Below the pieces are notes generated by a model that did no database searches, had not been told where the DNA came from, and saw only the letters and a program-made list of their open reading frames with translations. Shown in pieces: positions 5,687-48,007 of a stretch of DNA of 48,007 bases; within the stretch, counting starts at the first letter, position 1; each line of letters starts with the position of its first letter. The position numbers were made by a program, and so were the translations under genes. The DNA is from a virus: the IMG/VR virus record IMGVR_UViG_3300045988_078200; one strand, 5' to 3'.

Positions 5687-5882
5687 ATTGAAGCGGGCTT
5701 TTCTGGATGAACGCCCGGTTGCGTTCGGCGGTATCACCTATCAGAAAATAACGGCGGTGATTTACCGAAAGACCACGGACGGGAAAGGACTTCACGTGCA
5801 AGGCGAACTGCTGGACCGGAACGGGCGCGCCGTTGCAATCGCGGCGGCGGACCGAATCAATTTTGTGGAGGCGACACCATGA
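5664..5882 (+). CDS. Small hypothetical protein.
   Basis: 72-aa ORF in the coupled gene chain. Confidence 0.5.
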   Translation: MRAVTVNELKRAFLDERPVAFGGITYQKITAVIYRKTTDGKGLHVQGELLDRNGRAVAIAAADRINFVEATP

Positions 5883-6202
5883 CGCAGGAAATCAGAACAA
5901 TCACCATTGGAGCGGGACAAGCCCACCCGCGGCGGCGGAGCCAGAAGCACACCCGGCGGCGCGTTCGGCTGAGCGGCTGGACCGTGGCGAAATATGCGGC
6001 CCTGACCGTGGCCGGGGTCCTGCTGTTTCGAGCGGGTGCGGCCTACGCCATGACAGAACGGGGATATAAGGCGATCGGCGGCGAGGTTTTCGCCCTCTTC
6101 CTCCCCGTGTTCTACTACACAATTTCCGAAACGGTGCGGGACTATATCAAGGAAATCAAATCTATTTTTCGGGAGGAAAAGGACCATGAAAAAACTTGCT
6201 GA
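5879..6202 (+). CDS. Small membrane protein with two predicted TM segments.
   Basis: Hydrophobic stretches AKYAALTVAGVLLFRAGAAYA and VFALFLPVFYYTI. Confidence 0.55.
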   Translation: MTQEIRTITIGAGQAHPRRRSQKHTRRRVRLSGWTVAKYAALTVAGVLLFRAGAAYAMTERGYKAIGGEVFALFLPVFYYTISETVRDYIKEIKSIFREEKDHEKTC

Positions 6203-6917
6203 ACTGAAACCGGGCGATCGCTTTCTGTATGGCGGCATTGAGTGGGTCAAATTCGAGGACATCGGCGCGGGAACGCTTTGTCTGGCGGCGGAGCCTGTTT
6301 TTCACCGGGCGTTCGATGAAGAGAACTGCAACGACTGGCGAAAATCCTCTTTGCGCCGGGAACTGAACGGGGCGTTCCTTGACGCGCTGGTTGCGGAGGG
6401 TGCGGACCGAGCCGCGTTCCTCGATTGGGAAAGCGACTTGACCGCCGACGACGGAATGACCGATTACGGAACCGCCGTGGACAAGATCGCTTTGCGGTCC
6501 GACGTGCTTTGCCGCAAGTATCGGGAGATCACCCCGCCCGTGGACGAATGGTGCTGGAACCTGACCCCGTGGACGTGTGACCCTGAATATTCGTACTACG
6601 TCCGCAACGTCAATTCCTCCGGCGCGATGAGCTGGAACTACGCGTTCCACGGCGACAGGGGCGTTCGCCCGCTTTGCTATCTGAAATCTGAAATTTCGGT
6701 ATCTATCCCCGGAGAGAACGACGAAGCGGAGCAGGCCGCACGCCGCGAAGAAATGAAGCTGGAAGCCGTGGACGCGATCATGTCCGCGCTGAACGATTAT
6801 CCGCCCTATTTGTGGGGCGACGCGCTGGGCGCGGCGGTTGCCGCCCTGTTCCGGTCAAAGCAGGACGCGGAAGAGATCGCGCAGGAAGAGGCAGACAAAA
6901 AGGCGGTGGAGGGTTGA
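6186..6917 (+). CDS. Second, remote DGR target protein carrying VR2 at about aa 135-164.
   Basis: 243-aa ORF. ...YYVRNVNSSGAMSWNYAFHGDRGVRPLCYLKSEI matches the TR-encoded peptide. The N-terminal region resembles that of the 40240 target (W..S.RR.LN motif). Confidence 0.85.
   Translation: MKKLAELKPGDRFLYGGIEWVKFEDIGAGTLCLAAEPVFHRAFDEENCNDWRKSSLRRELNGAFLDALVAEGADRAAFLDWESDLTADDGMTDYGTAVDKIALRSDVLCRKYREITPPVDEWCWNLTPWTCDPEYSYYVRNVNSSGAMSWNYAFHGDRGVRPLCYLKSEISVSIPGENDEAEQAARREEMKLEAVDAIMSALNDYPPYLWGDALGAAVAALFRSKQDAEEIAQEEADKKAVEG
6589..6676 (+). repeat. DGR variable region VR2.
   Basis: 88 nt align with TR 38682-38769. There are 6 mismatches, all at TR adenines. Confidence 0.9.
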
Positions 6918-7347: not shown

Positions 7348-8166
7348 GTGCGAACATTTATCAGAGAAAAGAAAATCTATTGCGGAAAGAGTTACCGGGA
7401 AGTTGACATATTCCAGTACACAGACGCACAGTACAGAGCCACAAGGCGGACCCGCTCGAAGAAAGTGCGAGAATCGGAGCCAAAGCAAAAGAACCTGAAC
7501 GACATAAACGCCCGGCGGTATTTTATCCAGCTTGGAAACCTGAATTTCGGGGACGACCCGGACGCGCTTCATGTATCGGCTACATACAGCCCGAAATATC
7601 TTCCTGCCACGGTGGAGGACGCGGAGCGGGAGGCGACAAATTACCTCCGCCGGATTTCATACCGCAGGGAGAAAGAGGGATTGCCGCCGCTGAAATACCT
7701 GCTGATCACGTCATACACCACCAAACGAAACAGCGACACCCCCGTTCGCATTCATCACCATATCGTTATGAACGGCGGGTTAGACCGCGACACGGTGGAA
7801 GAGTTGTGGAGGAAGCGGAAGCGCAAGGGCCAGAAGAAAGGTGATCGAATCGGCTTTTGCAACGCTGACCGCCTGCAAGCCGATGAAAACGGCATAGCGG
7901 CCCTTTGTGTCTACCTTGTGAAGCAGAGCGGCGGGAAGAAGCGGTGGACTTCCTCGCAGAACCTTGAACGCCCCACCAGTCGGACGAATGACGGGAAGTA
8001 CAATCGGCGGCAGATCGAGAAGTGGGCGCGGGAGCGTCCGGGGCGGGAGTTTTGGGAAAAGAAATATCCCGGCTGGACCCTGACGGACGAAGATTACGGG
8101 ATTGAGTACAAATACAACGACTTCACGGGTTGGTCAATATACCTGAAATTGAGGAAGAAAGAATAG
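7348..8166 (+). CDS. Putative HUH-type rolling-circle replication initiator (Rep_1-like).
   Basis: RIHHHIVMNG fits HxHxhhh. CVYLVKQ fits the YxVK tyrosine motif. LHVSATYSP may be motif 1. The match was made by eye only. Confidence 0.45.
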   Translation: MRTFIREKKIYCGKSYREVDIFQYTDAQYRATRRTRSKKVRESEPKQKNLNDINARRYFIQLGNLNFGDDPDALHVSATYSPKYLPATVEDAEREATNYLRRISYRREKEGLPPLKYLLITSYTTKRNSDTPVRIHHHIVMNGGLDRDTVEELWRKRKRKGQKKGDRIGFCNADRLQADENGIAALCVYLVKQSGGKKRWTSSQNLERPTSRTNDGKYNRRQIEKWARERPGREFWEKKYPGWTLTDEDYGIEYKYNDFTGWSIYLKLRKKE

Positions 8167-14002: not shown

Positions 14003-14773
14003 ATGAAAATTGTCTCCATTATCAACCTGAAAGGCGGCGTTGCAAAGACGCTAACCGCCGACAATATGGCCCACGTACTCGCTGTTTTCCACAAAAAGCG
14101 GGTTTTGCTTGTGGATAACGACAAGCAGGGCAACACGTCAAAGGCGTTCGGGGTCCATTCCTACGACGAAAAGAGCCTTTCCGACGTTCTGACCGCCCGG
14201 CGGCTGGACGTGCGGGAGGTCATCAAAAAGACCCGGTTCGAGAATATCGACGTATTGCCCGCTAACATGACGCTGATTCGCGCAAATATGGAAGTGCTGA
14301 TGGACACCACCCGGCCACAGCAAACGCGCCTGCGGGCCGCGCTGGACCCCGTAGCGGGGCAATATGACTTCTGCATTATCGACAACGCCCCGGACATCAA
14401 CATTTCCACGATAAACGCCCTTGTTGCCTCCGACGACGTGATTATTCCGATTAAGATTGACAAGTACGCTTTCGACGGGCTGGCCGAACTGAAAGAACAG
14501 ATCGAGGACACGCGGGACGACTTGAACCCGCGCTTGCGGCTGGCCGGGTGCCTGATCACCTGCTTTATCCGAGCAGACGCAGAGAAGCAGGGCGAAGCAT
14601 GGTTGCGGAGCCGCCCGGAATACCCTGTATTTGACACCCGCATTCGGTATTCGGAGAAAGTCACAGAAAGCACCTTTTCGGAAATGCCGATTGCAGAATA
14701 TAGCCGCCGGAGCGGAACGGCTATGGACTATATCGCATTTGTGCGGGAATATTTGCAGAGGGGCAAGGCATGA
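14003..14773 (+). CDS. parA: ParA/Soj-family partition ATPase.
   Basis: MKIVSIINLKGGVAKT carries the deviant Walker A. LLVDNDKQGN is also present. GGAGG lies upstream of the start. Confidence 0.88.
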   Translation: MKIVSIINLKGGVAKTLTADNMAHVLAVFHKKRVLLVDNDKQGNTSKAFGVHSYDEKSLSDVLTARRLDVREVIKKTRFENIDVLPANMTLIRANMEVLMDTTRPQQTRLRAALDPVAGQYDFCIIDNAPDINISTINALVASDDVIIPIKIDKYAFDGLAELKEQIEDTRDDLNPRLRLAGCLITCFIRADAEKQGEAWLRSRPEYPVFDTRIRYSEKVTESTFSEMPIAEYSRRSGTAMDYIAFVREYLQRGKA

Positions 14774-14979
14774 GAGAAAAGAAGCTGACCCCGGAATATT
14801 GCAAAAACGGGAAAATACGGGCGTATCAATGCGGGATTTGTGATCGGCTGGACGTGGACGACGTGACGGACAAACGCTTTTGCCGAGCGGGATTCTGGCC
14901 CGGTTGCGGGGACCCGGACGGGTGCCGGGAAGCATTCAAACTGATTACAGGTGCCGGACGAATTGGCGTACACAGATAA
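14770..14979 (+). CDS. Small Cys-rich protein between parA and parB.
   Basis: 69-aa ORF with an ATGA overlap onto parA. Confidence 0.45.
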   Translation: MREKKLTPEYCKNGKIRAYQCGICDRLDVDDVTDKRFCRAGFWPGCGDPDGCREAFKLITGAGRIGVHR

Positions 14980-15011
14980 ACCGTCCGACTCGGACAGAAA
15001 GGGCGTACATC

Positions 15012-16253
15012 ATGGGAAAATTCAATCTGAATCAGATTTTGAACAACGCGTCGCGGCAGGCGGCGGAGGGCGGGAACACCCCGCCCCGCCCCGCTGAAAG
15101 CGAGATAAAGAAAATCAGCGTCTTTGACCTTGTGCCGTCGGAAGATAACTTCTATTCCATGCGGGAGATTGAAGAACTGAAAGCGGCAATCGAGATCGCC
15201 GGGAAAGTTCTGCAAAACCTGACCGTTGTTCCGCTGGACGGTGGGAAATACAAGGTCATTGCAGGCCACCGCCGCCGCCTCGCGTCGCTGGCCCTTGTGG
15301 AAGATGGAAAGCCGCAATATGAATTCGTCACCTGTTCCGTGGAGCCGAACGAAGAGGCGGCGGAAGATCAGGAAATCCGGGACGGCCTGAACCTGATTGT
15401 CACCAACTCCCAGCGGGAGAAAACGGCATGGGATAAGATCGAGGAAGTGCGCTACTTGCGGGACGTGCTGGAAAAGGCAAAGACCCGCCCGCGGTTCGTG
15501 GCCGTCCTGCAAAGAATTGTCGCAACCGTGTTCGGGGACAGCGAGGTTCAGGCAGACGGAACCCGCGATTTTATCGCAAAAGTGCTTCACACAAGCCCGG
15601 CGCAGATCGGGCGGTATGACACCATCATTCGCCACCTGTCCCCGGAATTCAAAGAAGAACTGAAAGCAGACCGCATAAACCTTTCGACCGCCTATGAACT
15701 GGCGGGATTGCCGGAAGAGGACCAGCGGGCCGCGTTCGAGGAATACCAGAGAACCGGGGAAATTTCCATCAAGGCCGCACGGGAGCGGAAGCCGCAAGCG
15801 GCTCCGTCCCCTCCCACGCCGCAGGACGAAGAGAAAAACACCCCGCCCGCCGAACCCGTCCGGGAGCGGGAGCAGACACCACCGCCCCCGGCGCATTGCA
15901 TACCGTCCACCGTACCACAACCGGGAATCGACTGGAACGAGGAAACGGGGCGGGAAATGCCGGAGGAAAGCCCACAGGACGCGCAGGACGCGCCGGAAGC
16001 GAGCGGGGCGGGAAAAGACACGGCCAACAGAGAAACCGTCGCAAAACCAGCGCAGACGCGAAAGCCGCAAGCGACGCAGAGTGCGGGGCTTGGGATTTGC
16101 CCTTACTGCGGAAAACCGTTTGACGCGGCGCGGTCAATCGAATACAGCATTCGAGGAACGGAGGGGCGGGAGCCTGTGACATGCCCGAAGTGCGGCGGGA
16201 AAATCGAAATCCGGTGTACGGTTTCCTATTGCTGTTCCCCGGTGGAATCGTGA
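15012..16253 (+). CDS. parB: ParB-family protein with an N-terminal ParB/Srx domain, an HTH, a Pro-rich linker and a C-terminal zinc ribbon.
   Basis: VPLDGGKYKVIAGHRRRLASLAL carries the GxRR box. HTSPAQIGRYDTIIRHLSPEFKEEL is the HTH. The C-terminus reads CPYCG...CPKCG. Confidence 0.8.
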   Translation: MGKFNLNQILNNASRQAAEGGNTPPRPAESEIKKISVFDLVPSEDNFYSMREIEELKAAIEIAGKVLQNLTVVPLDGGKYKVIAGHRRRLASLALVEDGKPQYEFVTCSVEPNEEAAEDQEIRDGLNLIVTNSQREKTAWDKIEEVRYLRDVLEKAKTRPRFVAVLQRIVATVFGDSEVQADGTRDFIAKVLHTSPAQIGRYDTIIRHLSPEFKEELKADRINLSTAYELAGLPEEDQRAAFEEYQRTGEISIKAARERKPQAAPSPPTPQDEEKNTPPAEPVREREQTPPPPAHCIPSTVPQPGIDWNEETGREMPEESPQDAQDAPEASGAGKDTANRETVAKPAQTRKPQATQSAGLGICPYCGKPFDAARSIEYSIRGTEGREPVTCPKCGGKIEIRCTVSYCCSPVES

Positions 16254-37114: not shown

Positions 37115-38002
37115 ATGGCAGAAATCGAAAACACATACGGAAGCATTGTGACCGACGTAGGCGTTCAGCTTATCACACAAGCGGTCATGGAGGGCCAGAA
37201 AGTCAATATTACGACCCTCGCCGTGGGCGACGGCGGAGGAAGCTACTACAAGCCGAATTCCACGATGACGGCCCTAAAGGGGGAGCAATGGCGCGGAAAG
37301 GTAAACCGCGTGGAGGTCAATGAGAAATCACCGAACATGATCGACGTGGTGGCGGTGGTCCCCTCCGACGTGGGCGGCTGGACTATCCGGGAAATGGGCG
37401 TGTTCGACGACGCGGAAGAGCCGAACATGATCGCCGTCTGCAATACGCCGGACACGGAAAAGGTCATTATCACCAGCGGAGCCGCCGGGGAAATTGAACT
37501 GACCATGCACATCGAAATTTCCAACACGGGCGCGATCTCTTTTGTCATTGACCCGAACGTGGTCACGGCCACAAAAAAGGACCTTGCAGACCACAACACG
37601 TCGCAGACGGCGCACGCCGCGGAGTTTGAGAAAAAGGCAGACGTTACCGCCCTGAACGCCCACGCGAACAACAGCGATATTCACGTGAACCCCACGACGA
37701 TGGGGAACTATGACACGGCCATTGCCGGACTGATCGACCACACGGAGGACACGGAAGTTCACGTTCAGCCGGGTGAGCGGGCCGCGTGGGACGCAGGCGC
37801 GGAGGCCGCAGGGCAGGCGGAGGCGGACGCGGCGGAAGCCCTGTCCGCGATTGCGGGGCTGGAAAGCCGCGTTTCCCGCGTGGAAGATGGCCTGTTCAAC
37901 AACATCACCGGAAACCCGTTTCTTGTGCAATTTGATTCCCTTGACGGGGTGGTTATGACAAAGGGCATTTGGAACGCGGCCAGAAACAGAATCGAATGTT
38001 GA
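37115..38002 (+). CDS. Tail fibre protein with a tail-collar N-terminal domain.
   Basis: ITTLAVGDGGGSYYKPNSTMTALKGEQWRG...GWTIREMGVFDD. Confidence 0.75.
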   Translation: MAEIENTYGSIVTDVGVQLITQAVMEGQKVNITTLAVGDGGGSYYKPNSTMTALKGEQWRGKVNRVEVNEKSPNMIDVVAVVPSDVGGWTIREMGVFDDAEEPNMIAVCNTPDTEKVIITSGAAGEIELTMHIEISNTGAISFVIDPNVVTATKKDLADHNTSQTAHAAEFEKKADVTALNAHANNSDIHVNPTTMGNYDTAIAGLIDHTEDTEVHVQPGERAAWDAGAEAAGQAEADAAEALSAIAGLESRVSRVEDGLFNNITGNPFLVQFDSLDGVVMTKGIWNAARNRIEC

Positions 38003-38238
38003 GGGAATACGCCTGCACGCGGCGGGAACTGTCCTGCATCATCGGGAATCTGTTTGCGGAGCTGGACCCGCCTTGCGCCGCGTGCGCTTCCGACGCTGAC
38101 GAACTGACGATCAGCGGGCGGACCCATACCGGGGCGCAGGCGGTTCTAACTGTCACGGAATGGGGATTCCTGTTCGACGGGGACCCGTCGGAGATCGAAG
38201 AAATCCGGGGAAAGAGGTGCTTACGGCGTGGCGGATGA
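37996..38238 (+). CDS. Small hypothetical protein, possibly a fibre assembly factor.
   Basis: ATG at 37996 overlaps the fibre gene stop. Confidence 0.4.
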   Translation: MLREYACTRRELSCIIGNLFAELDPPCAACASDADELTISGRTHTGAQAVLTVTEWGFLFDGDPSEIEEIRGKRCLRRGG

Positions 38239-38641
38239 AAAGGAATTTATCATCATCACGAAAGCGAAAGATTTAGCCTTTCACACCTACGACATGACCA
38301 CCGCCCGCCGCTTTCCAAAGCGGCACGGGAAACTTGCCGTAGACCTGATGGAATTTGCACGGGAAATCGTGATTCATATTCAGGACGCGAACGAACTTGA
38401 CGTTCAGGACGCGGGAGAATTCCGGGAACGGCGGTATGAACAGAAACAGGCCCTTTCACGCTGTAAAGACATGCTGTTTTTGATCGAACTGGCCGAGCGA
38501 AAGAACCTGATTTCAACGGCGCAATGCGCGGCGTGGACAAAGTACGCCGTGGAAGTAAAACGGATGACGGCCAGTTGGAGGAAAAAGGACCTCGAACGAT
38601 TCACGGAATCCGGACAACGGGGAAACGCGCCGCGGCGGTGA
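38228..38641 (+). CDS. avd: DGR accessory variability determinant (Avd-like four-helix-bundle protein).
   Basis: 137 aa, basic, immediately 5' of the TR. KAKDLAFHTYDMTTARRFPKRHGKLAVDLMEFAREIVIHIQDAN fits the Avd/S23-IVS pattern. Confidence 0.65.
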   Translation: MADEKEFIIITKAKDLAFHTYDMTTARRFPKRHGKLAVDLMEFAREIVIHIQDANELDVQDAGEFRERRYEQKQALSRCKDMLFLIELAERKNLISTAQCAAWTKYAVEVKRMTASWRKKDLERFTESGQRGNAPRR

Positions 38642-38674
38642 TCGCCGGGGCGTTTTTCTTGGGGTGCGGCTTGT

Positions 38675-38769
38675 AGCGTCGAATTCGTACAACGTCCGCA
38701 ACGTCAATTCCTCCGGCGCGATGAACTGGAACAACGCGTACAACGGCAACAGGGGCGTTCGCCCGCTTT
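38675..38769 (+). repeat. DGR template repeat (TR).
   Basis: 95 nt homologous to 40903-40997 and 6589-6676. It carries 22 adenines, and in the VR frame reads YNVRNVNSSGAMNWNNAYNGNRGVRPL-stop. Confidence 0.9.
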
Positions 38770-39023
38770 GATGGAACACCGGGAACGAGTAAGCCGGACG
38801 GCTGAAAGCAGAGGACCATCATCAAAGGAAGCCGCATCCCTCCGCCGCGGTGACAGCGCGACGGTAAATACAAGATTGGTGAAGCAAGGCCCACGGGAAC
38901 CAGCTTCCGCCCCGCCACGGGCGCGCGGCGGGGTCCGATGATGAAGCATTGCGACGGCAGGCGGAGGACCGCTTGCCGCCCCCGCAAGGCGGATTCTATA
39001 CACGGCAAGGAGCATTTTTTATT
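38770..39023 (+). ncRNA. DGR spacer region between TR and RT. It is ORF-free, GC-rich and likely a structured part of the DGR RNA.
   Basis: There is no plausible + strand ORF. Several GC stems are present, for example CCCCGCC...GGCGGGG around 38910-38936. Assigned by position and by analogy with the Bordetella DGR. Confidence 0.5.
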
Positions 39024-40214
39024 ATGCAACAAACAGATTTCGAGCGGGTCCACGATTTCGGGAACCTATACGCGGGGTTCTTAAAGGCCCGCCGGGGCAA
39101 ACGGGGCAAAGCGAGCGTCGCAAAATTTGAAGCAAACCTGCTGGAAGCCCTTTGCCTGCTTTCGGAAATGCTGAAGAACAAGACCTACCGCCCGTCGGAC
39201 TATTTCGTGTTCCGGGTCTACGAGCCAAAAGAACGCATCGTTATGACCAACGCGTTCAAAGACAAGGTGGTTCAGCATTCTTTATGTGACAATGTGTTGG
39301 AGCCTGCATTTTCCCGCGCCTTTATCCGCGACAACTACGCGTCGCAAAAGGGGCGCGGGACGCATGACGGCCTGTATCGGCTGGAAGCGTTTATGCGGTC
39401 CTACTATTTCGAGCGGAAAGCGCGGGAAGAACAACGGTGCCGGGAGGAGGGGTTGCCGCGGCCCGACCCGCGCGCCGCCCGCTATGCGGACGGCTGGGTC
39501 CTGAAATGCGACATATCAAAATATTTCTACTCGATTCCGCATGAACCATTGAAAGCAATGGTGCGCCGCTTCATCCGGGACCCGGACGTTCTATGGCTTG
39601 TCGATATGATCATTGACAGCACGGACGACCCCGGAATTCCGATCGGCAACCAGACTTCACAATGGTTCGCGGTCATGTACCTTTCGGGGCTTGACCATTT
39701 CATAAAAGAGAAATTGGGAATCCGCTACTATGGGCGGTATATGGACGACTTTTACTTGATTCACGAGGACAAGGCGTATTTGCAGTATTGCCGCCGGGAG
39801 ATTGAAAAGTACGTGGCCGGGCTGGGATTGAAGCTGAACAACAAGACAAATATTTTCCCGCTACGGAACGGAATTGATTTTCTTGGATTCCGAACCTATA
39901 TGACCGACACGGGGAAGATCGTGCGCAAGGTAAGGAGGAACAGCAAATGTAACGAGCAACGGAAGTTGAAGAAACAGCGGGGCTTGCTGGACAAGGGGAA
40001 AATCACCCTTGCGGCAATCGAACAGTCTTACGGAAGCTGGCGGAGCCACGCCGAAAAGGGCAACTGTCACCACCTGATCAGGGAAACCGACAGGAAGTTC
40101 AACCGCCTGTTCCCGGAAAGCAAATTGCTATGCAGAAAGAACAAAAGGCCGGAAAAGGAAAGCTATTTCTGCGGTTTTATCGCTGACCCGCGGGAAACGC
40201 TTTCCGAACAGTAA
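39024..40214 (+). CDS. DGR reverse transcriptase.
   Basis: IPIGNQTSQWFA is the DGR-specific [ILV]GxxxSQ motif. GRYMDDFYLI carries YMDD. The gene is adjacent to the TR. Confidence 0.9.
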   Translation: MQQTDFERVHDFGNLYAGFLKARRGKRGKASVAKFEANLLEALCLLSEMLKNKTYRPSDYFVFRVYEPKERIVMTNAFKDKVVQHSLCDNVLEPAFSRAFIRDNYASQKGRGTHDGLYRLEAFMRSYYFERKAREEQRCREEGLPRPDPRAARYADGWVLKCDISKYFYSIPHEPLKAMVRRFIRDPDVLWLVDMIIDSTDDPGIPIGNQTSQWFAVMYLSGLDHFIKEKLGIRYYGRYMDDFYLIHEDKAYLQYCRREIEKYVAGLGLKLNNKTNIFPLRNGIDFLGFRTYMTDTGKIVRKVRRNSKCNEQRKLKKQRGLLDKGKITLAAIEQSYGSWRSHAEKGNCHHLIRETDRKFNRLFPESKLLCRKNKRPEKESYFCGFIADPRETLSEQ

Positions 40215-40239
40215 GTACACAAAAGGAGCGTGAAGCGAA

Positions 40240-41958
40240 ATGCCGAAAGCATTAAGCACCCTCGCCGTTGGCGCGCTGGTGAAAGACACCGGAACGCTTT
40301 ACAACGGGAAACCGATCATTTGGAAGATCGCGGACAAGAACCACGCCGGGTTTCCGGCGAATTCCGTCACGCTGATCACGGAGCGCATTATCTCGCTGAA
40401 ATGCTTTGACGCTATTGAGCAGAGCAACAGCGACGGAAACCGCCGTTCCTACGGAAACAACCGCTGGATTTGGTCAAATATCCGCCGATGGCTGAACAGT
40501 CAAGCGGGGGCGGGCGCGTGGTACGCGGCCCAGCACGGGCAGGACGCGCCGCCGAACAACGCGAACGTGTGGAGCAACTACAACGAGTACGAGGCGGAAG
40601 CGGGCTTTCTGGCGGGATTCTCCGCGAACTTTATTGCCGCCCTGCTGACCACGAACCGGACCGTCGGCAAAGCGCAGGTGGACGGCGGCGGGACGGAGAC
40701 ATGCACCGACAAAATCTTCTTTGCCACGTCAACGGAAGTCGGCTTGTCGGGCGACGTGGTGGCCGGAAGCAAACTTGCGCTGTTCAGCGACGACGCTTCC
40801 CGGCAGGCAAAGCCGACGGCGGAGGCGGTAAGCAAGAGCGAGTACCAGACAAGCAGTTTGAACGCAAATTCGTTCTGGTACTGGTGGCTTGCGGACGCTT
40901 ACGCGTCGAGTTCGGACGACGTCCGCAACGTCACTTCCTCCGGCGCGATGGACTGGTGCAGCGCGTACGCCGGCAACCGGGGCGTTCGCCCGCTTTGTAA
41001 TCTAAAATCTGAAATCTTGGTATCTGACAGCCCGGATTCGGACGGCGCATACAGCATCGTATGGAACCGCGCCCCGTCGGTCCCGGATTCCATCGACGTT
41101 CCGAGCGACGTTCGGGGCGGCGAAAGCCTGATTGTGAATTGGGGAACGTCCACCGACCCGGACAACAACCTTTCGGGGTACGTCCTCGAACGGCAGTACA
41201 ACGGCGGCGGATGGGCGCAGGTCTACAAGGGAATCAACCGGACGCACACCGACCAGATCACAAAGGGATGGGAGAATGTGGCGTACCGGGTCAAAGCATA
41301 CGACAGCGCGGGCGCGGAATCGGCGTACAAGACCAGCGCGACGCGGACGGTCATCAACAACACGCCGCCCACGATCAGCGGGACAGATACGGACCTTGGG
41401 GCAAAGACCGGAGCGTTCGACCAGAAATACACCGTCACAGACCCGGACAGCGGCCAGACGATCACCGTCGTTGAGAAGATCGACGGGGCGCAAAAGCGGT
41501 CCTACGCCGCGACCAGCGGGCAGGAATACACGTTCAGCGTGACCGCGGATGAATGGCGGAAGCTGTTGAACGGGTCCCACACGCTGACGGTGACGGCGAC
41601 GGACAATTACGGCGGAACCGCGACGCGGACTTACACATTCAGCAAGAACGAAACCGAAATTGAACTGACCCTTGCAACGCCCCTTGAAGCCGACGACATG
41701 GTGACAAAGGCGATCATGTCCATTACCCGGCAGATTCCGGCGGGCGCAGAATTCACCGTGGAGGCGTGCAACAACGGCAACGACGATTCCCCCACGTGGG
41801 AGGACGTTACGCAGGCCGTCACCAGCGGGAGCAAGTTTTTCCTTTCCAACGACAGCAAGACGGCGGCGGAATGGGGATTCAATTTCCGAATCAAGGTGAA
41901 GCGGAACAGCGCAAGCGGGGATTGCTTCATTTCTTCCGTGGGAGGTAATTTTGAATGA
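40240..41958 (+). CDS. DGR target 1. Fibre- or receptor-binding-like protein with the variable domain at about aa 222-253, followed by FN3/Ig-like domains.
   Basis: 572 aa. WYWWLADAYASSSDDVRNVTSSGAMDWCSAYAGNRGVRPLCNLKSEI contains VR1. It is followed by SLIVNWGTSTDPDNNLSGYVLERQYNGGGWAQVYKG (FN3-like). Confidence 0.85.
   Translation: MPKALSTLAVGALVKDTGTLYNGKPIIWKIADKNHAGFPANSVTLITERIISLKCFDAIEQSNSDGNRRSYGNNRWIWSNIRRWLNSQAGAGAWYAAQHGQDAPPNNANVWSNYNEYEAEAGFLAGFSANFIAALLTTNRTVGKAQVDGGGTETCTDKIFFATSTEVGLSGDVVAGSKLALFSDDASRQAKPTAEAVSKSEYQTSSLNANSFWYWWLADAYASSSDDVRNVTSSGAMDWCSAYAGNRGVRPLCNLKSEILVSDSPDSDGAYSIVWNRAPSVPDSIDVPSDVRGGESLIVNWGTSTDPDNNLSGYVLERQYNGGGWAQVYKGINRTHTDQITKGWENVAYRVKAYDSAGAESAYKTSATRTVINNTPPTISGTDTDLGAKTGAFDQKYTVTDPDSGQTITVVEKIDGAQKRSYAATSGQEYTFSVTADEWRKLLNGSHTLTVTATDNYGGTATRTYTFSKNETEIELTLATPLEADDMVTKAIMSITRQIPAGAEFTVEACNNGNDDSPTWEDVTQAVTSGSKFFLSNDSKTAAEWGFNFRIKVKRNSASGDCFISSVGGNFE
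40903..40997 (+). repeat. DGR variable region VR1.
   Basis: 95 nt align with the TR. There are 11 mismatches, 10 of them at TR adenines. Confidence 0.9.
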
Positions 41959-47753: not shown

Positions 47754-48007
47754 ATGGAAAAGAAAAAGTATGCGTGCAACACGCGGGCGAAGAACAAGTG
47801 GAACGCCGAAAATTACGACCGCCTTTACCCCTATGTGAAGATCGGGAAAAAGGCGGTCTACCAAAAAGCGGTAGAAGCTGGCGGATTTGAAAGCCTGAAC
47901 GACCTGATCGAGACGGCGACGGACAGAATCGCGGCGGAGGTTTTGGGGCTAACCACAGAGCAATACGCGGCGGAAGTGCAGGCCGCGGCGGAGAAAGCAA
48001 AAAAAGA
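47754..48007 (+). CDS. Small ribbon-helix-helix/Arc-like putative regulator. This is the 5' part; the gene runs off the window end and continues at 1-126.
   Basis: ATG at 47754 follows GGAGG (47741-47745). The translation is MEKKKYACNTRAKNKWNAENYDRLYPYVKIGKKAVYQKAVEAGGFESLNDLIETATDRI... The frame stays open through the terminal repeat. The gene lies directly downstream of a TTGCGT-N17-TATAAT promoter. Confidence 0.65.
   Translation, partial: MEKKKYACNTRAKNKWNAENYDRLYPYVKIGKKAVYQKAVEAGGFESLNDLIETATDRIAAEVLGLTTEQYAAEVQAAAEKAKK
47889..48007. repeat. Terminal direct repeat, copy 2, identical to 1-119.
   Basis: Same comparison as copy 1. Confidence 0.97.

Follow-up and report, generated by a model that had tools for sequence, protein, structure and literature searches.

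Phage diversity-generating retroelements (DGRs) have been described in several arrangements. In the survey of Wu et al. (2018; PMC5758913), architecture B1 consists of a core of avd, template repeat (TR) and reverse transcriptase (RT) with a varying arrangement of target genes, and many phage DGRs combine one adjacent target with a second, non-adjacent one within 50 kb in the same prophage. The small gut myoviruses nd4 and nd12 (PMC10743442; OR777945, OR777946) carry DGRs directed at tentaclins, while in Bordetella phage BPP-1 the order is mtd-avd-TR-brt. Further DGRs belong to the Faecalibacterium prophages Lelie, CP11, Roos and Pioen (PMC11792537). Here we analyse an element of this kind in the IMG/VR virus record IMGVR_UViG_3300045988_078200, whose whole sequence of 48,007 nucleotides is called the window throughout. 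It contains a functional-looking DGR in which, judging from the sequence, one TR very probably diversifies two lectin-like proteins: a tentaclin encoded next to the RT gene (target 1) and a small protein encoded far from it (target 2, tgt2).

The resemblance to nd4 and nd12 extends to the order avd-TR-RT-tentaclin (seen in nd4), to the immunoglobulin (Ig)-like domains of the tentaclin, to the setting in small gut myoviruses, to a second small target, with a putative DUF6273 domain, served by the same TR, and to a TR with many AAY codons and a YNGN-type motif. The differences lie in sequence, with RT about 52% and Avd about 41% identical to the proteins of the window, and in the location of the second target. 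According to the paper this lies within the cassette in nd4 and nd12, whereas in the window it is 15.8-32.1 kb away, beside the gene for a replication initiator (Rep), in a placement conserved in its group. No homologue of the window tgt2 was detected in the 13.7-kb stretch of nd4 around the cassette. The target2 proteins of Baykov et al. (2023) are about 230-300 residues long, with a single lectin-like domain between short helices and a variable repeat (VR) near the 3' end of the gene, served by the TR of the tentaclin. For tgt2 as a possible member of this group speak its 243 residues, its shared TR, its helical C-terminus and a partial DUF6273 match; against it speak the residues that follow its VR, about 80 in number, and the position of the gene outside the cassette.

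With BPP-1 the window shares an Avd-type protein, an adenine-specific signature of variation, a VR at the C-terminal end of a C-type-lectin fold and a structured spacer (Sp), including a duplex of upstream sequence with Sp59-70 that brackets the TR and an adenosine at Sp56. It differs from BPP-1 in having its target 3' of RT rather than 5' of avd, in having two targets, one of them non-adjacent, in a spacer of 253 rather than 140 nt, in lacking a VR hairpin and a difference between the initiation of mutagenic homing element (IMH) and its TR counterpart (IMH*), and in a target that is a tentaclin rather than the trimeric Mtd. The Faecalibacterium prophages share the host group, Oscillospirales, but represent other phage lineages with no nucleotide-level similarity to the window. 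The phage DGRs of Wu et al., with their B1 architecture and second targets within 50 kb, are the same in kind as the element described here. Both the kind of DGR and the target family are already described, and the window element leaves the known picture of DGRs unchanged.

One template repeat and two variable repeats

A sequence-only reading of the window had proposed a complete DGR at 38228-41958, and each of the components that it named (avd, TR, spacer, RT and target) finds support. The 95-nt direct repeat on which it was based, with one copy upstream of RT and another in a fibre-like gene, is present at 38676-38770 and 40903-40997 (TR and VR1; Table 1). The VR had been placed correctly, while the TR and every mismatch position in it had been given one base too low. 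After a one-base shift the eleven reported mismatches are all recovered. Ten fall on TR adenines (38683, 38691, 38707, 38724, 38730, 38731, 38734, 38742, 38743 and 38751) and the eleventh is a T>G change at TR 38688, VR1 40915. If 11 mismatches were spread at random over a 95-nt segment with 22 adenines, ten or more would land on adenines with a probability of 6e-7 (hypergeometric).

In the target frame all eleven mismatches affect the first or second base of a codon, and all 22 adenines of the TR occupy such positions too. Translation of the TR in the frame of the VR gives ASNSYNVRNVNSSGAMNWNNAYNGNRGVRPL and then a stop. A check over all of its codons bore out the earlier proposal that mutagenesis at adenines would diversify the peptide without creating stops, none being reachable from any codon; the theoretical repertoire is 5.5e12 peptides. 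The last 19 nt of the repeat are free of adenines and identical in TR and VR1. This invariance had been noted before, together with the suggestion that the segment is an IMH; that label was conjecture, the segment being no more than the stretch without adenines with which the repeat ends on its 3' side.

Table 1. Features of the retroelement and its two targets, with positions in the window
Feature	Position	Strand	Description
tgt2 (target 2)	6186-6917	+	Small lectin-like protein (predicted) of 243 aa with acidic helical C-terminus; phrog_9958, E=3.5e-62
VR2	6588-6676	+	Homologous to TR positions 7/8-95; 6-7 differences, all at TR adenines
avd	38228-38641	+	137 aa, isoelectric point (pI) 9.3; phrog_3206 'Avd protein of DGR', E=7.7e-23; directly 5' of TR
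Terminator-like hairpin	38622-38658	+	Stem 38633-38647 and T-run; straddles avd stop codon, 5' of TR
Duplex, 5' strand (GGGGTGCGGCTT)	38661-38672	+	4-15 nt upstream of TR; pairs with Sp59-70 (38829-38840)
TR	38676-38770	+	95 nt with 22 adenines; non-coding; between avd and RT, 253 nt upstream of RT start
Spacer (Sp)	38771-39023	+	253 nt, structured; RT ribosome-binding site AAGGAG at 39007-39012
DGR reverse transcriptase	39024-40214	+	396 aa; IGNQTSQ and YMDD; Pfam RVT_1; phrog_1423, E=5e-132
Target 1 (tentaclin)	40240-41958	+	572 aa; DUF6273 C-lectin-like N-terminal domain (to about residue 262), then three beta-sandwich (fibronectin type III (Fn3)/Ig-like) domains
VR1	40903-40997	+	Residues 222-253 of target 1, C-terminal end of DUF6273 domain

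The claim of completeness does not hold, since the same TR serves a second, non-adjacent VR outside the proposed span: VR2, in the open reading frame (ORF) at 6186-6917. A scan of the whole window that counted matches to the TR at non-A positions showed a third copy of the repeat at 6582-6676, with 68 of 73 such positions matching. An earlier pattern search of the window allowing three mismatches had passed over it, the six bases at its 5' end being different. From TR to VR2 the changes are A>T, A>T, A>G, A>T, A>T, A>C and A>G, and within TR positions 8-95 none of the 66 non-A sites differs. Around the circular genome (see below), the distance from the TR to VR2 is 32.1 kb in the upstream and 15.8 kb in the downstream direction.

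A repeat common to two paralogous DUF6273 domains might also be the product of ordinary recombination or gene conversion between them, with no reverse transcription involved. Gene conversion would not, however, confine the differences to the adenines of one copy, and it leaves unexplained an invariant, non-coding third copy beside an RT gene. We regard the chance that this accounts for the repeats as negligible. The preferred reading, that of a DGR acting on two targets, can be assessed further by comparison with related genomes.

Variation across related genomes

Related loci were collected in two ways. Scanning IMG/VR with the TR as a pattern, its adenines replaced by N, gave 23 loci. The 13 TR copies among them, from 13 contigs, keep every adenine; positions 6 and 9 alone distinguish them, giving three variants. 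By contrast the 19 VR copies are all distinct, and at positions 6 and 9 each VR has the variant found in the TR of its own contig. Because non-A bases at positions 33-91 were fixed by the pattern, positions 13-32 are the unbiased part; in it variation reaches each of the 7 A sites, whereas the 13 non-A sites contribute one change between them, the T>G of the window itself. Loci were also retrieved through the RT protein, independently of the VR sequence. In the 107 unique TR/VR1 pairs so obtained, 1319 of 2680 A sites differ as against 38 of 7621 non-A sites, a contrast somewhat inflated by the TR/VR detector, which penalises non-A mismatches.

The second VR behaves similarly. The tgt2 gene and the cassette were found together on 11 contigs, with VR2 scored in ten (in one, L211/L134, the scan re-found the TR itself), and in 9 of the 11 the interval from the TR to VR2 is 30.8-34.0 kb going upstream or 14.6-15.4 kb going downstream. 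Compared with the TR of its own genome in ten other contigs, VR2 matches at 59-72 of 68-73 non-A sites and differs at many adenines. It also carries the lineage-specific non-A bases of that TR, for example CTCTTAC, TCTGG and GCTTAC, and CAACGGCG in the L158 lineage. When 29 tgt2 homologues are aligned as proteins, a comparison that owes nothing to the DNA pattern, variability is seen only at residues of about 133-159, the VR codons, in a protein otherwise nearly invariant. Together, the tracking of each TR's own non-A variants, the restriction of differences to adenines and the pattern of tgt2 variability argue for a single TR as the donor of both VRs, acting in trans on VR2.

Were the DGR to have a single target, 6588-6676 would be an old duplicate or fossil VR that the TR no longer rewrites. 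The distance of VR2 from the TR and its shorter 5' homology, starting from TR position 7/8, would be in keeping with that. A fossil should, however, gain non-A changes, of which VR2 has none, while its flanks have diverged: tgt2 is 39% identical over 107 residues to the lectin-like domain of target 1 (tblastn). The agreement of VR2 with its own TR on ten other contigs, and the confinement of tgt2 variation to VR codons, likewise speak against a fossil, and we consider this explanation extremely unlikely.

Variation between contigs could also record past activity of a cassette that is now a silent relic. The non-A substitution in VR1 and the terminator-like hairpin between avd and TR might be taken as signs of decay. 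Against this, no ORF of the element is broken, be it RT, avd or either target, the catalytic motifs are kept, the TR retains 22 of 22 adenines, and wholly different VRs occur in genomes with 96-99% identity in their flanking proteins. One relative, L020 (IMGVR_UViG_7000000695_000062), has two VR variants stacked at 79-269, where a VR is followed by just 'TAATCTN' before another VR-like copy begins that differs from it. This hints at the collapse of co-existing VR variants during assembly, hence at heterogeneity within the sample. That the element is an inactive relic is, in our view, highly unlikely.

The adjacent target

The gene containing VR1 had been read as fibre-like. Its product is a member of the published tentaclin family rather than a fibre, with a DUF6273 lectin-like domain followed by Fn3/Ig-like domains. 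The Pfam DUF6273 match covers residues 41-257 (E=3e-30) and ends at VR1, phrog_10993 covers the protein at full length (E=1.9e-236), and identity over the full length is 55% to the nd4 tentaclin and 50% to that of nd12, the two proteins on which the family was founded as its type members. Weak Pfam matches to Big_9 and Big_13 follow the DUF6273 domain. An AlphaFold2 model, with a predicted local distance difference test (pLDDT) score of 92.6, has beta-sandwich domains at about residues 270-360, 365-470 and 473-572. In this model VR1 forms a beta-hairpin (strands 227-231 and 237-241) and then a loop, so that the predicted structure is that of a tentaclin: a VR on a surface beta-hairpin in an N-terminal C-lectin (DUF6273) domain, with Ig-like domains after it.

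A Foldseek search with full-length target 1 gave a list dominated by Fn3/Ig tandems. The top match by both Foldseek and phmmer is the N-terminal domain of 9qa6 (fold E=1.9e-12, sequence E=4e-11), which has a C-type lectin-like (CTLD) core according to its authors (PMC12237041) and is labelled DUF6273 by another group (PMC12402451). The VR1 domain thus has a C-type-lectin fold with the VR at its C-terminal end, as DGR targets do. The 9qa6 domain, homologous to the region 40240-41050, is the N-terminal lectin-like part of an IgA peptidase of the gut bacterium Thomasclavelia ramosa, and is dispensable for catalysis there.

In its C-terminal part target 1 is 38-42% identical to the FP_Brigit, FP_Mushu, Toutatis and Lelie proteins, for the first three over residues 350-572 against their own C-terminal parts, and phrog_36643 spans residues 349-572. 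The FP_Mushu, Brigit and Toutatis proteins served to define the C-terminal anchor Ig domain of tentaclins, with its seven-residue consensus (PMC10743442), and target 1 may have such an anchor. In PHROG, target 1 is annotated as 'Hoc-like head decoration', and its FP_Mushu and FP_Brigit homologues are likewise Hoc-like. Target 1 might then be a capsid decoration that binds mucus or other non-host ligands, rather than a receptor-binding protein of the tail, with the DGR mechanism unchanged. The label, the Ig/Fn3 tandem and the annotated homologues all favour this, and non-host binding is among the hypotheses of Baykov et al. (PMC10743442). On the other hand, the gene is outside the head module, lying between tail-fibre/p89 genes and lysis genes; the Ig-like part also matches the solved tail fibre protein 31he; and the name 'Hoc-like' is based on Ig-like domains only (PMC10743442). 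A head decoration is therefore an unlikely, if still respectable, alternative to a protein of the tail.

The cassette had been pictured as grafted onto the tail-fibre module. This is apt in the positional sense only, and the placement is constant throughout the phage group.

The second target

The lectin-like character of tgt2 is suggested by its similarity to the C-terminal part of Pfam DUF6273 (E=5.5e-6). VR2 is followed by about 80 further residues. A protein search gave 899 clusters, one of them with 4856 members. The neighbours of tgt2 include small ORFs, of which a 2-transmembrane (2-TM) ORF at 5879-6202 overlaps its start, while the replication initiator gene (7348-8166) and a PAPS-reductase-like gene are downstream, and the gene order p72-p107-tgt2-rep is kept in more than 20 loci.

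This setting raises the idea that tgt2 is a non-virion, intracellular or membrane-associated binder diversified by the DGR, acting for example in superinfection exclusion, anti-defence or host takeover. The idea arises from the site of the gene in an early or replication region, its overlap with the 2-TM ORF, its adjacency to Rep and the retention of this placement in more than 20 contigs. We consider it distinctly improbable. If it were true, tgt2 would represent a new functional class of phage DGR targets, and one template would diversify a virion adhesin and a non-structural protein at once.

Whatever its function, a second target 16-32 kb away would escape cassette-centred pipelines, and looking only near RT risks missing such targets. 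The element itself could be spotted from a reading of the sequence alone.

Reverse transcriptase and Avd

The DGR-specific IGNQTSQ motif and the YMDD box that had been reported for the adjacent RT are both found in the ORF at 39024-40214. They correspond to the motif 4 consensus [I/L/V]GxxxSQ and the YxDD box by which the DGR clade is recognised, and on these sequence features the protein is placed among DGR RTs. Its best match in the PDB is the 328-residue RT 8ub7_A (E=7.4e-36), with retron-type and group II intron RTs at about 1e-10. We take 8ub7 to be bRT of Bordetella phage BPP-1, a putative identification made on the strength of its 328-residue length and the agreement at D138. In the alignment of the window RT, an aspartate occupies position 138 of the 8ub7_A chain. 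The active-site residue of bRT is D138 (bioRxiv 10.1101/2023.10.23.563531).

Like L022 and L104, the window RT is about 30 residues longer at its C-terminus, while its close relatives L005-L021 mostly align only to residue 366. This extension accounts for the spacing from TR to VR1, which is 2227 nt in the window as against 2116-2120 nt in relatives.

The basic Avd-like protein of 137 residues that had been noticed before the TR corresponds to the ORF at 38228-38641, with its high pI and its match to phrog_3206. Pfam PF22296 (bAvd-like) is matched by 17 of 30 Avd homologues encoded at the same position in related cassettes. The assignment as Avd, made from sequence similarity and in part transitive, stands.

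RNA structure around the template repeat

The spacer between TR and RT is highly conserved, even across lineages whose Avd is just 56% identical. For 18 representatives RNAalifold gave a spacer-only structure with 97.6% of cells paired. Eight pairs have double changes, compared with 3.7+-1.3 in shuffled alignments and 0-3 in slid controls. A 12-bp duplex of sequence upstream of the TR with Sp59-70 brackets the TR. In 17 sequences 99% of its cells are paired, against 45-59% in slid controls, and 6 of its 12 pairs show compensatory double changes. The duplex was taken from local folding with the upstream flank, the output of RNAduplex on whole sequences being noisy. A helix of 5 bp joins the last base of the TR and Sp1-4 (38770-38774) to Sp46-50 (38816-38820), further hairpins follow in the spacer downstream of Sp59-70, and CAAAGGA is invariant at Sp53-59 (38823-38829). 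No Rfam family matched the spacer, and for the region and the whole window Rfam gave nothing but one match at chance level.

In BPP-1 the 'cPRT Stop' is a duplex between a segment of avd and Sp59-70, and the adenosine Sp A56 primes synthesis of complementary DNA (cDNA) (bioRxiv 10.1101/2023.10.23.563531). The position of the duplex, Sp59-70, is the same in the window, a striking correspondence, and the spacer of the window thus has both the structure and the upstream:spacer duplex expected for a DGR. The 5' limit of homology between TR and VR1 is 4 nt past the 12-bp duplex, which is consistent with a cDNA stop there. By analogy, cDNA may be primed from Sp A56 of the window (38826). The retention of a TR-bracketing duplex in an RT lineage that matches 8ub7_A at E=7e-36 supports the generality of this priming and stop architecture.

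Two other structures were seen in the same region. RNAalifold also formed a helix between TR positions 31-40 (AATTCCTCCG, 38706-38715) and the RT ribosome-binding region 39004-39015 (CGGCAAGGAGTT in most relatives). Neither side shows appreciable variation across the 18 sequences, so covariation gives no indication either way; the pairing could link folding of the TR to translation of RT, or be due to chance. The GC-rich hairpin at 38622-38658 resembles an intrinsic terminator and is a candidate terminator, attenuator or part of the DGR RNA. Its DNA fold (-19.6 kcal/mol, z=-1.9) gives it weak backing, and a similar stem and T-run are present in the diverged lineage L003/L004. Scans for sigma-70 promoters and terminators around TR and tgt2 were uninformative.

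A proposed mechanism and its difficulties

These features can be assembled into a working scheme. An RNA comprising the 3' end of avd, the TR and the spacer would have its TR bracketed by the 12-bp duplex and by the short helix in which the last base of the TR takes part with the spacer. A complex of RT and Avd would copy the TR into cDNA, misincorporating opposite its 22 template adenines. The cDNA would replace the homologous VR1 in the adjacent tentaclin and act in trans on VR2 in tgt2, beside the replication initiator gene. In both targets the VR would encode the same exposed element, situated where a DUF6273 C-type-lectin-like domain reaches its C-terminus. Up to about 5.5e12 peptide variants would be available to each target, stop codons being impossible, and the presumed benefit would be adaptation of phage adsorption or adhesion. 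Within this scheme cis-priming, the stop of cDNA at the duplex, the requirement for Avd, retrohoming and the ligand-binding role are proposed by analogy with BPP-1. The anatomy of the sequence, the adenine-restricted variation among populations, the co-evolution of the TR with its two VRs, the covariation in the RNA and the assignment of the proteins to families come from the sequences themselves.

Besides the biases of the pattern scan and of the TR/VR detector mentioned above, several observations weigh against the proposal of an active DGR with two targets. The 3' ends of the repeat are the same in TR, VR1 and VR2, with no IMH/IMH* difference within the repeat, and no hairpin or cruciform of the BPP-1 type was found 3' of either VR, the DNA folds having z=+1.6 (VR1) and -0.4 (VR2) relative to shuffled sequences. 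Neither absence is a bar to membership of the DGRs, this feature not being universal among them. VR1 carries the T>G substitution at 40915, at a non-A site. A candidate primer pairing of CAAAG at Sp53-57 with CUUUG at TR positions 91-95 shows no covariation, U93C occurring in 5 of 17 TRs without compensation. The Avd of the window has no Pfam match of its own and matches NCBIfam DivGenRetAVD at E=7.6e-4, under the cut-off. Neither phmmer with this protein nor a profile of 30 Avd sequences gave a meaningful match among PDB sequences. The AlphaFold2 model of tgt2 (pLDDT 54) is unusable, its alignment being shallow with homologues all more than 81% identical. For target 1 and tgt2 alike, membership of the virion is putative. 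Finally, the evidence of activity is, for the window genome, wholly comparative.

Gene order

The sequence-only reading had singled out the order avd-TR-RT-target as a departure from the textbook arrangement. The same order is, however, found in about 115 related loci, in nd4/nd12 and in the published architecture B1. The loci were drawn from IMG/VR and from genomes of Acutalibacter, Oscillibacter, Dysosmobacter, Lawsonibacter, Anaerococcus and other Clostridia. TR-RT-VR is the order in every one of those with a detected pair and an RT at least about 52% identical (about 115), with a single exception, and the VR begins some 0.7 kb inside the gene that follows. In the exceptional L134, truncated directly after RT, only the upstream VR of tgt2 is in range. 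A sister clade, with RT identity of 49% or less, has the textbook upstream VR, usually two of them. Both the gene order and the non-adjacent target are known variations. What emerges is a clade of Clostridia-phage DGRs in which one template supplies both the tentaclin, in cis, and a small lectin-like protein whose gene keeps a constant distant position.

The phage genome

Positions 1-119 of the window recur exactly at 47889-48007, so the window is not a fragment but a whole genome; its 47,888 bp are either closed into a circle or terminally redundant. The phage is a contractile-tailed gut phage of Oscillospirales (Clostridia). Elsewhere its genome encodes terminase, portal, major head protein, sheath, tape measure, baseplate J, P2-I-like and tail-fibre proteins, and an endolysin, as well as ParA/ParB and an rve-type transposase-like protein. 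A megablast search of GenBank phages with the cassette gave no match.

The transposase-like protein, with helix-turn-helix and rve-core regions, is encoded at 1405-2577, the replication initiator at 7348-8166, ParA at 14003-14773 and ParB at 14880-16253. No tyrosine or serine integrase was found among the ORFs scanned. From its predicted gene content, this combination suggests a phage-plasmid or transposable lifestyle. Relatives, however, are located on contigs of 150-300 kb and within a 235-kb bacterial contig (L024, from the cultured isolate 'Bacterium 210917-SL.2.15', with an RT 97% identical to that of the window).

Some neighbouring and related loci deserve mention. An extra RT-like ORF, 29-32% identical to the window RT, is present in two long related contigs, L183 (2339-4700) and L214 (at about 3090), the former also having tentaclin-like fragments upstream of its p269-tgt2 region. 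This ORF may belong to a second retroelement, one absent from the window. In L200 (10.3 kb) and L211 (6.7 kb) the tgt2-rep region is joined almost directly to fibN-avd-RT, skipping the structural module; these contigs are either deletion derivatives or chimeric assemblies. Just upstream of the cassette in the window, an ORF of 89 residues at 37969-38238 (phrog_21058) overlaps both the end of the tail-fibre gene and the start of avd. Its position is kept in both sub-lineages, and it probably encodes a fibre assembly or chaperone protein rather than a part of the DGR.

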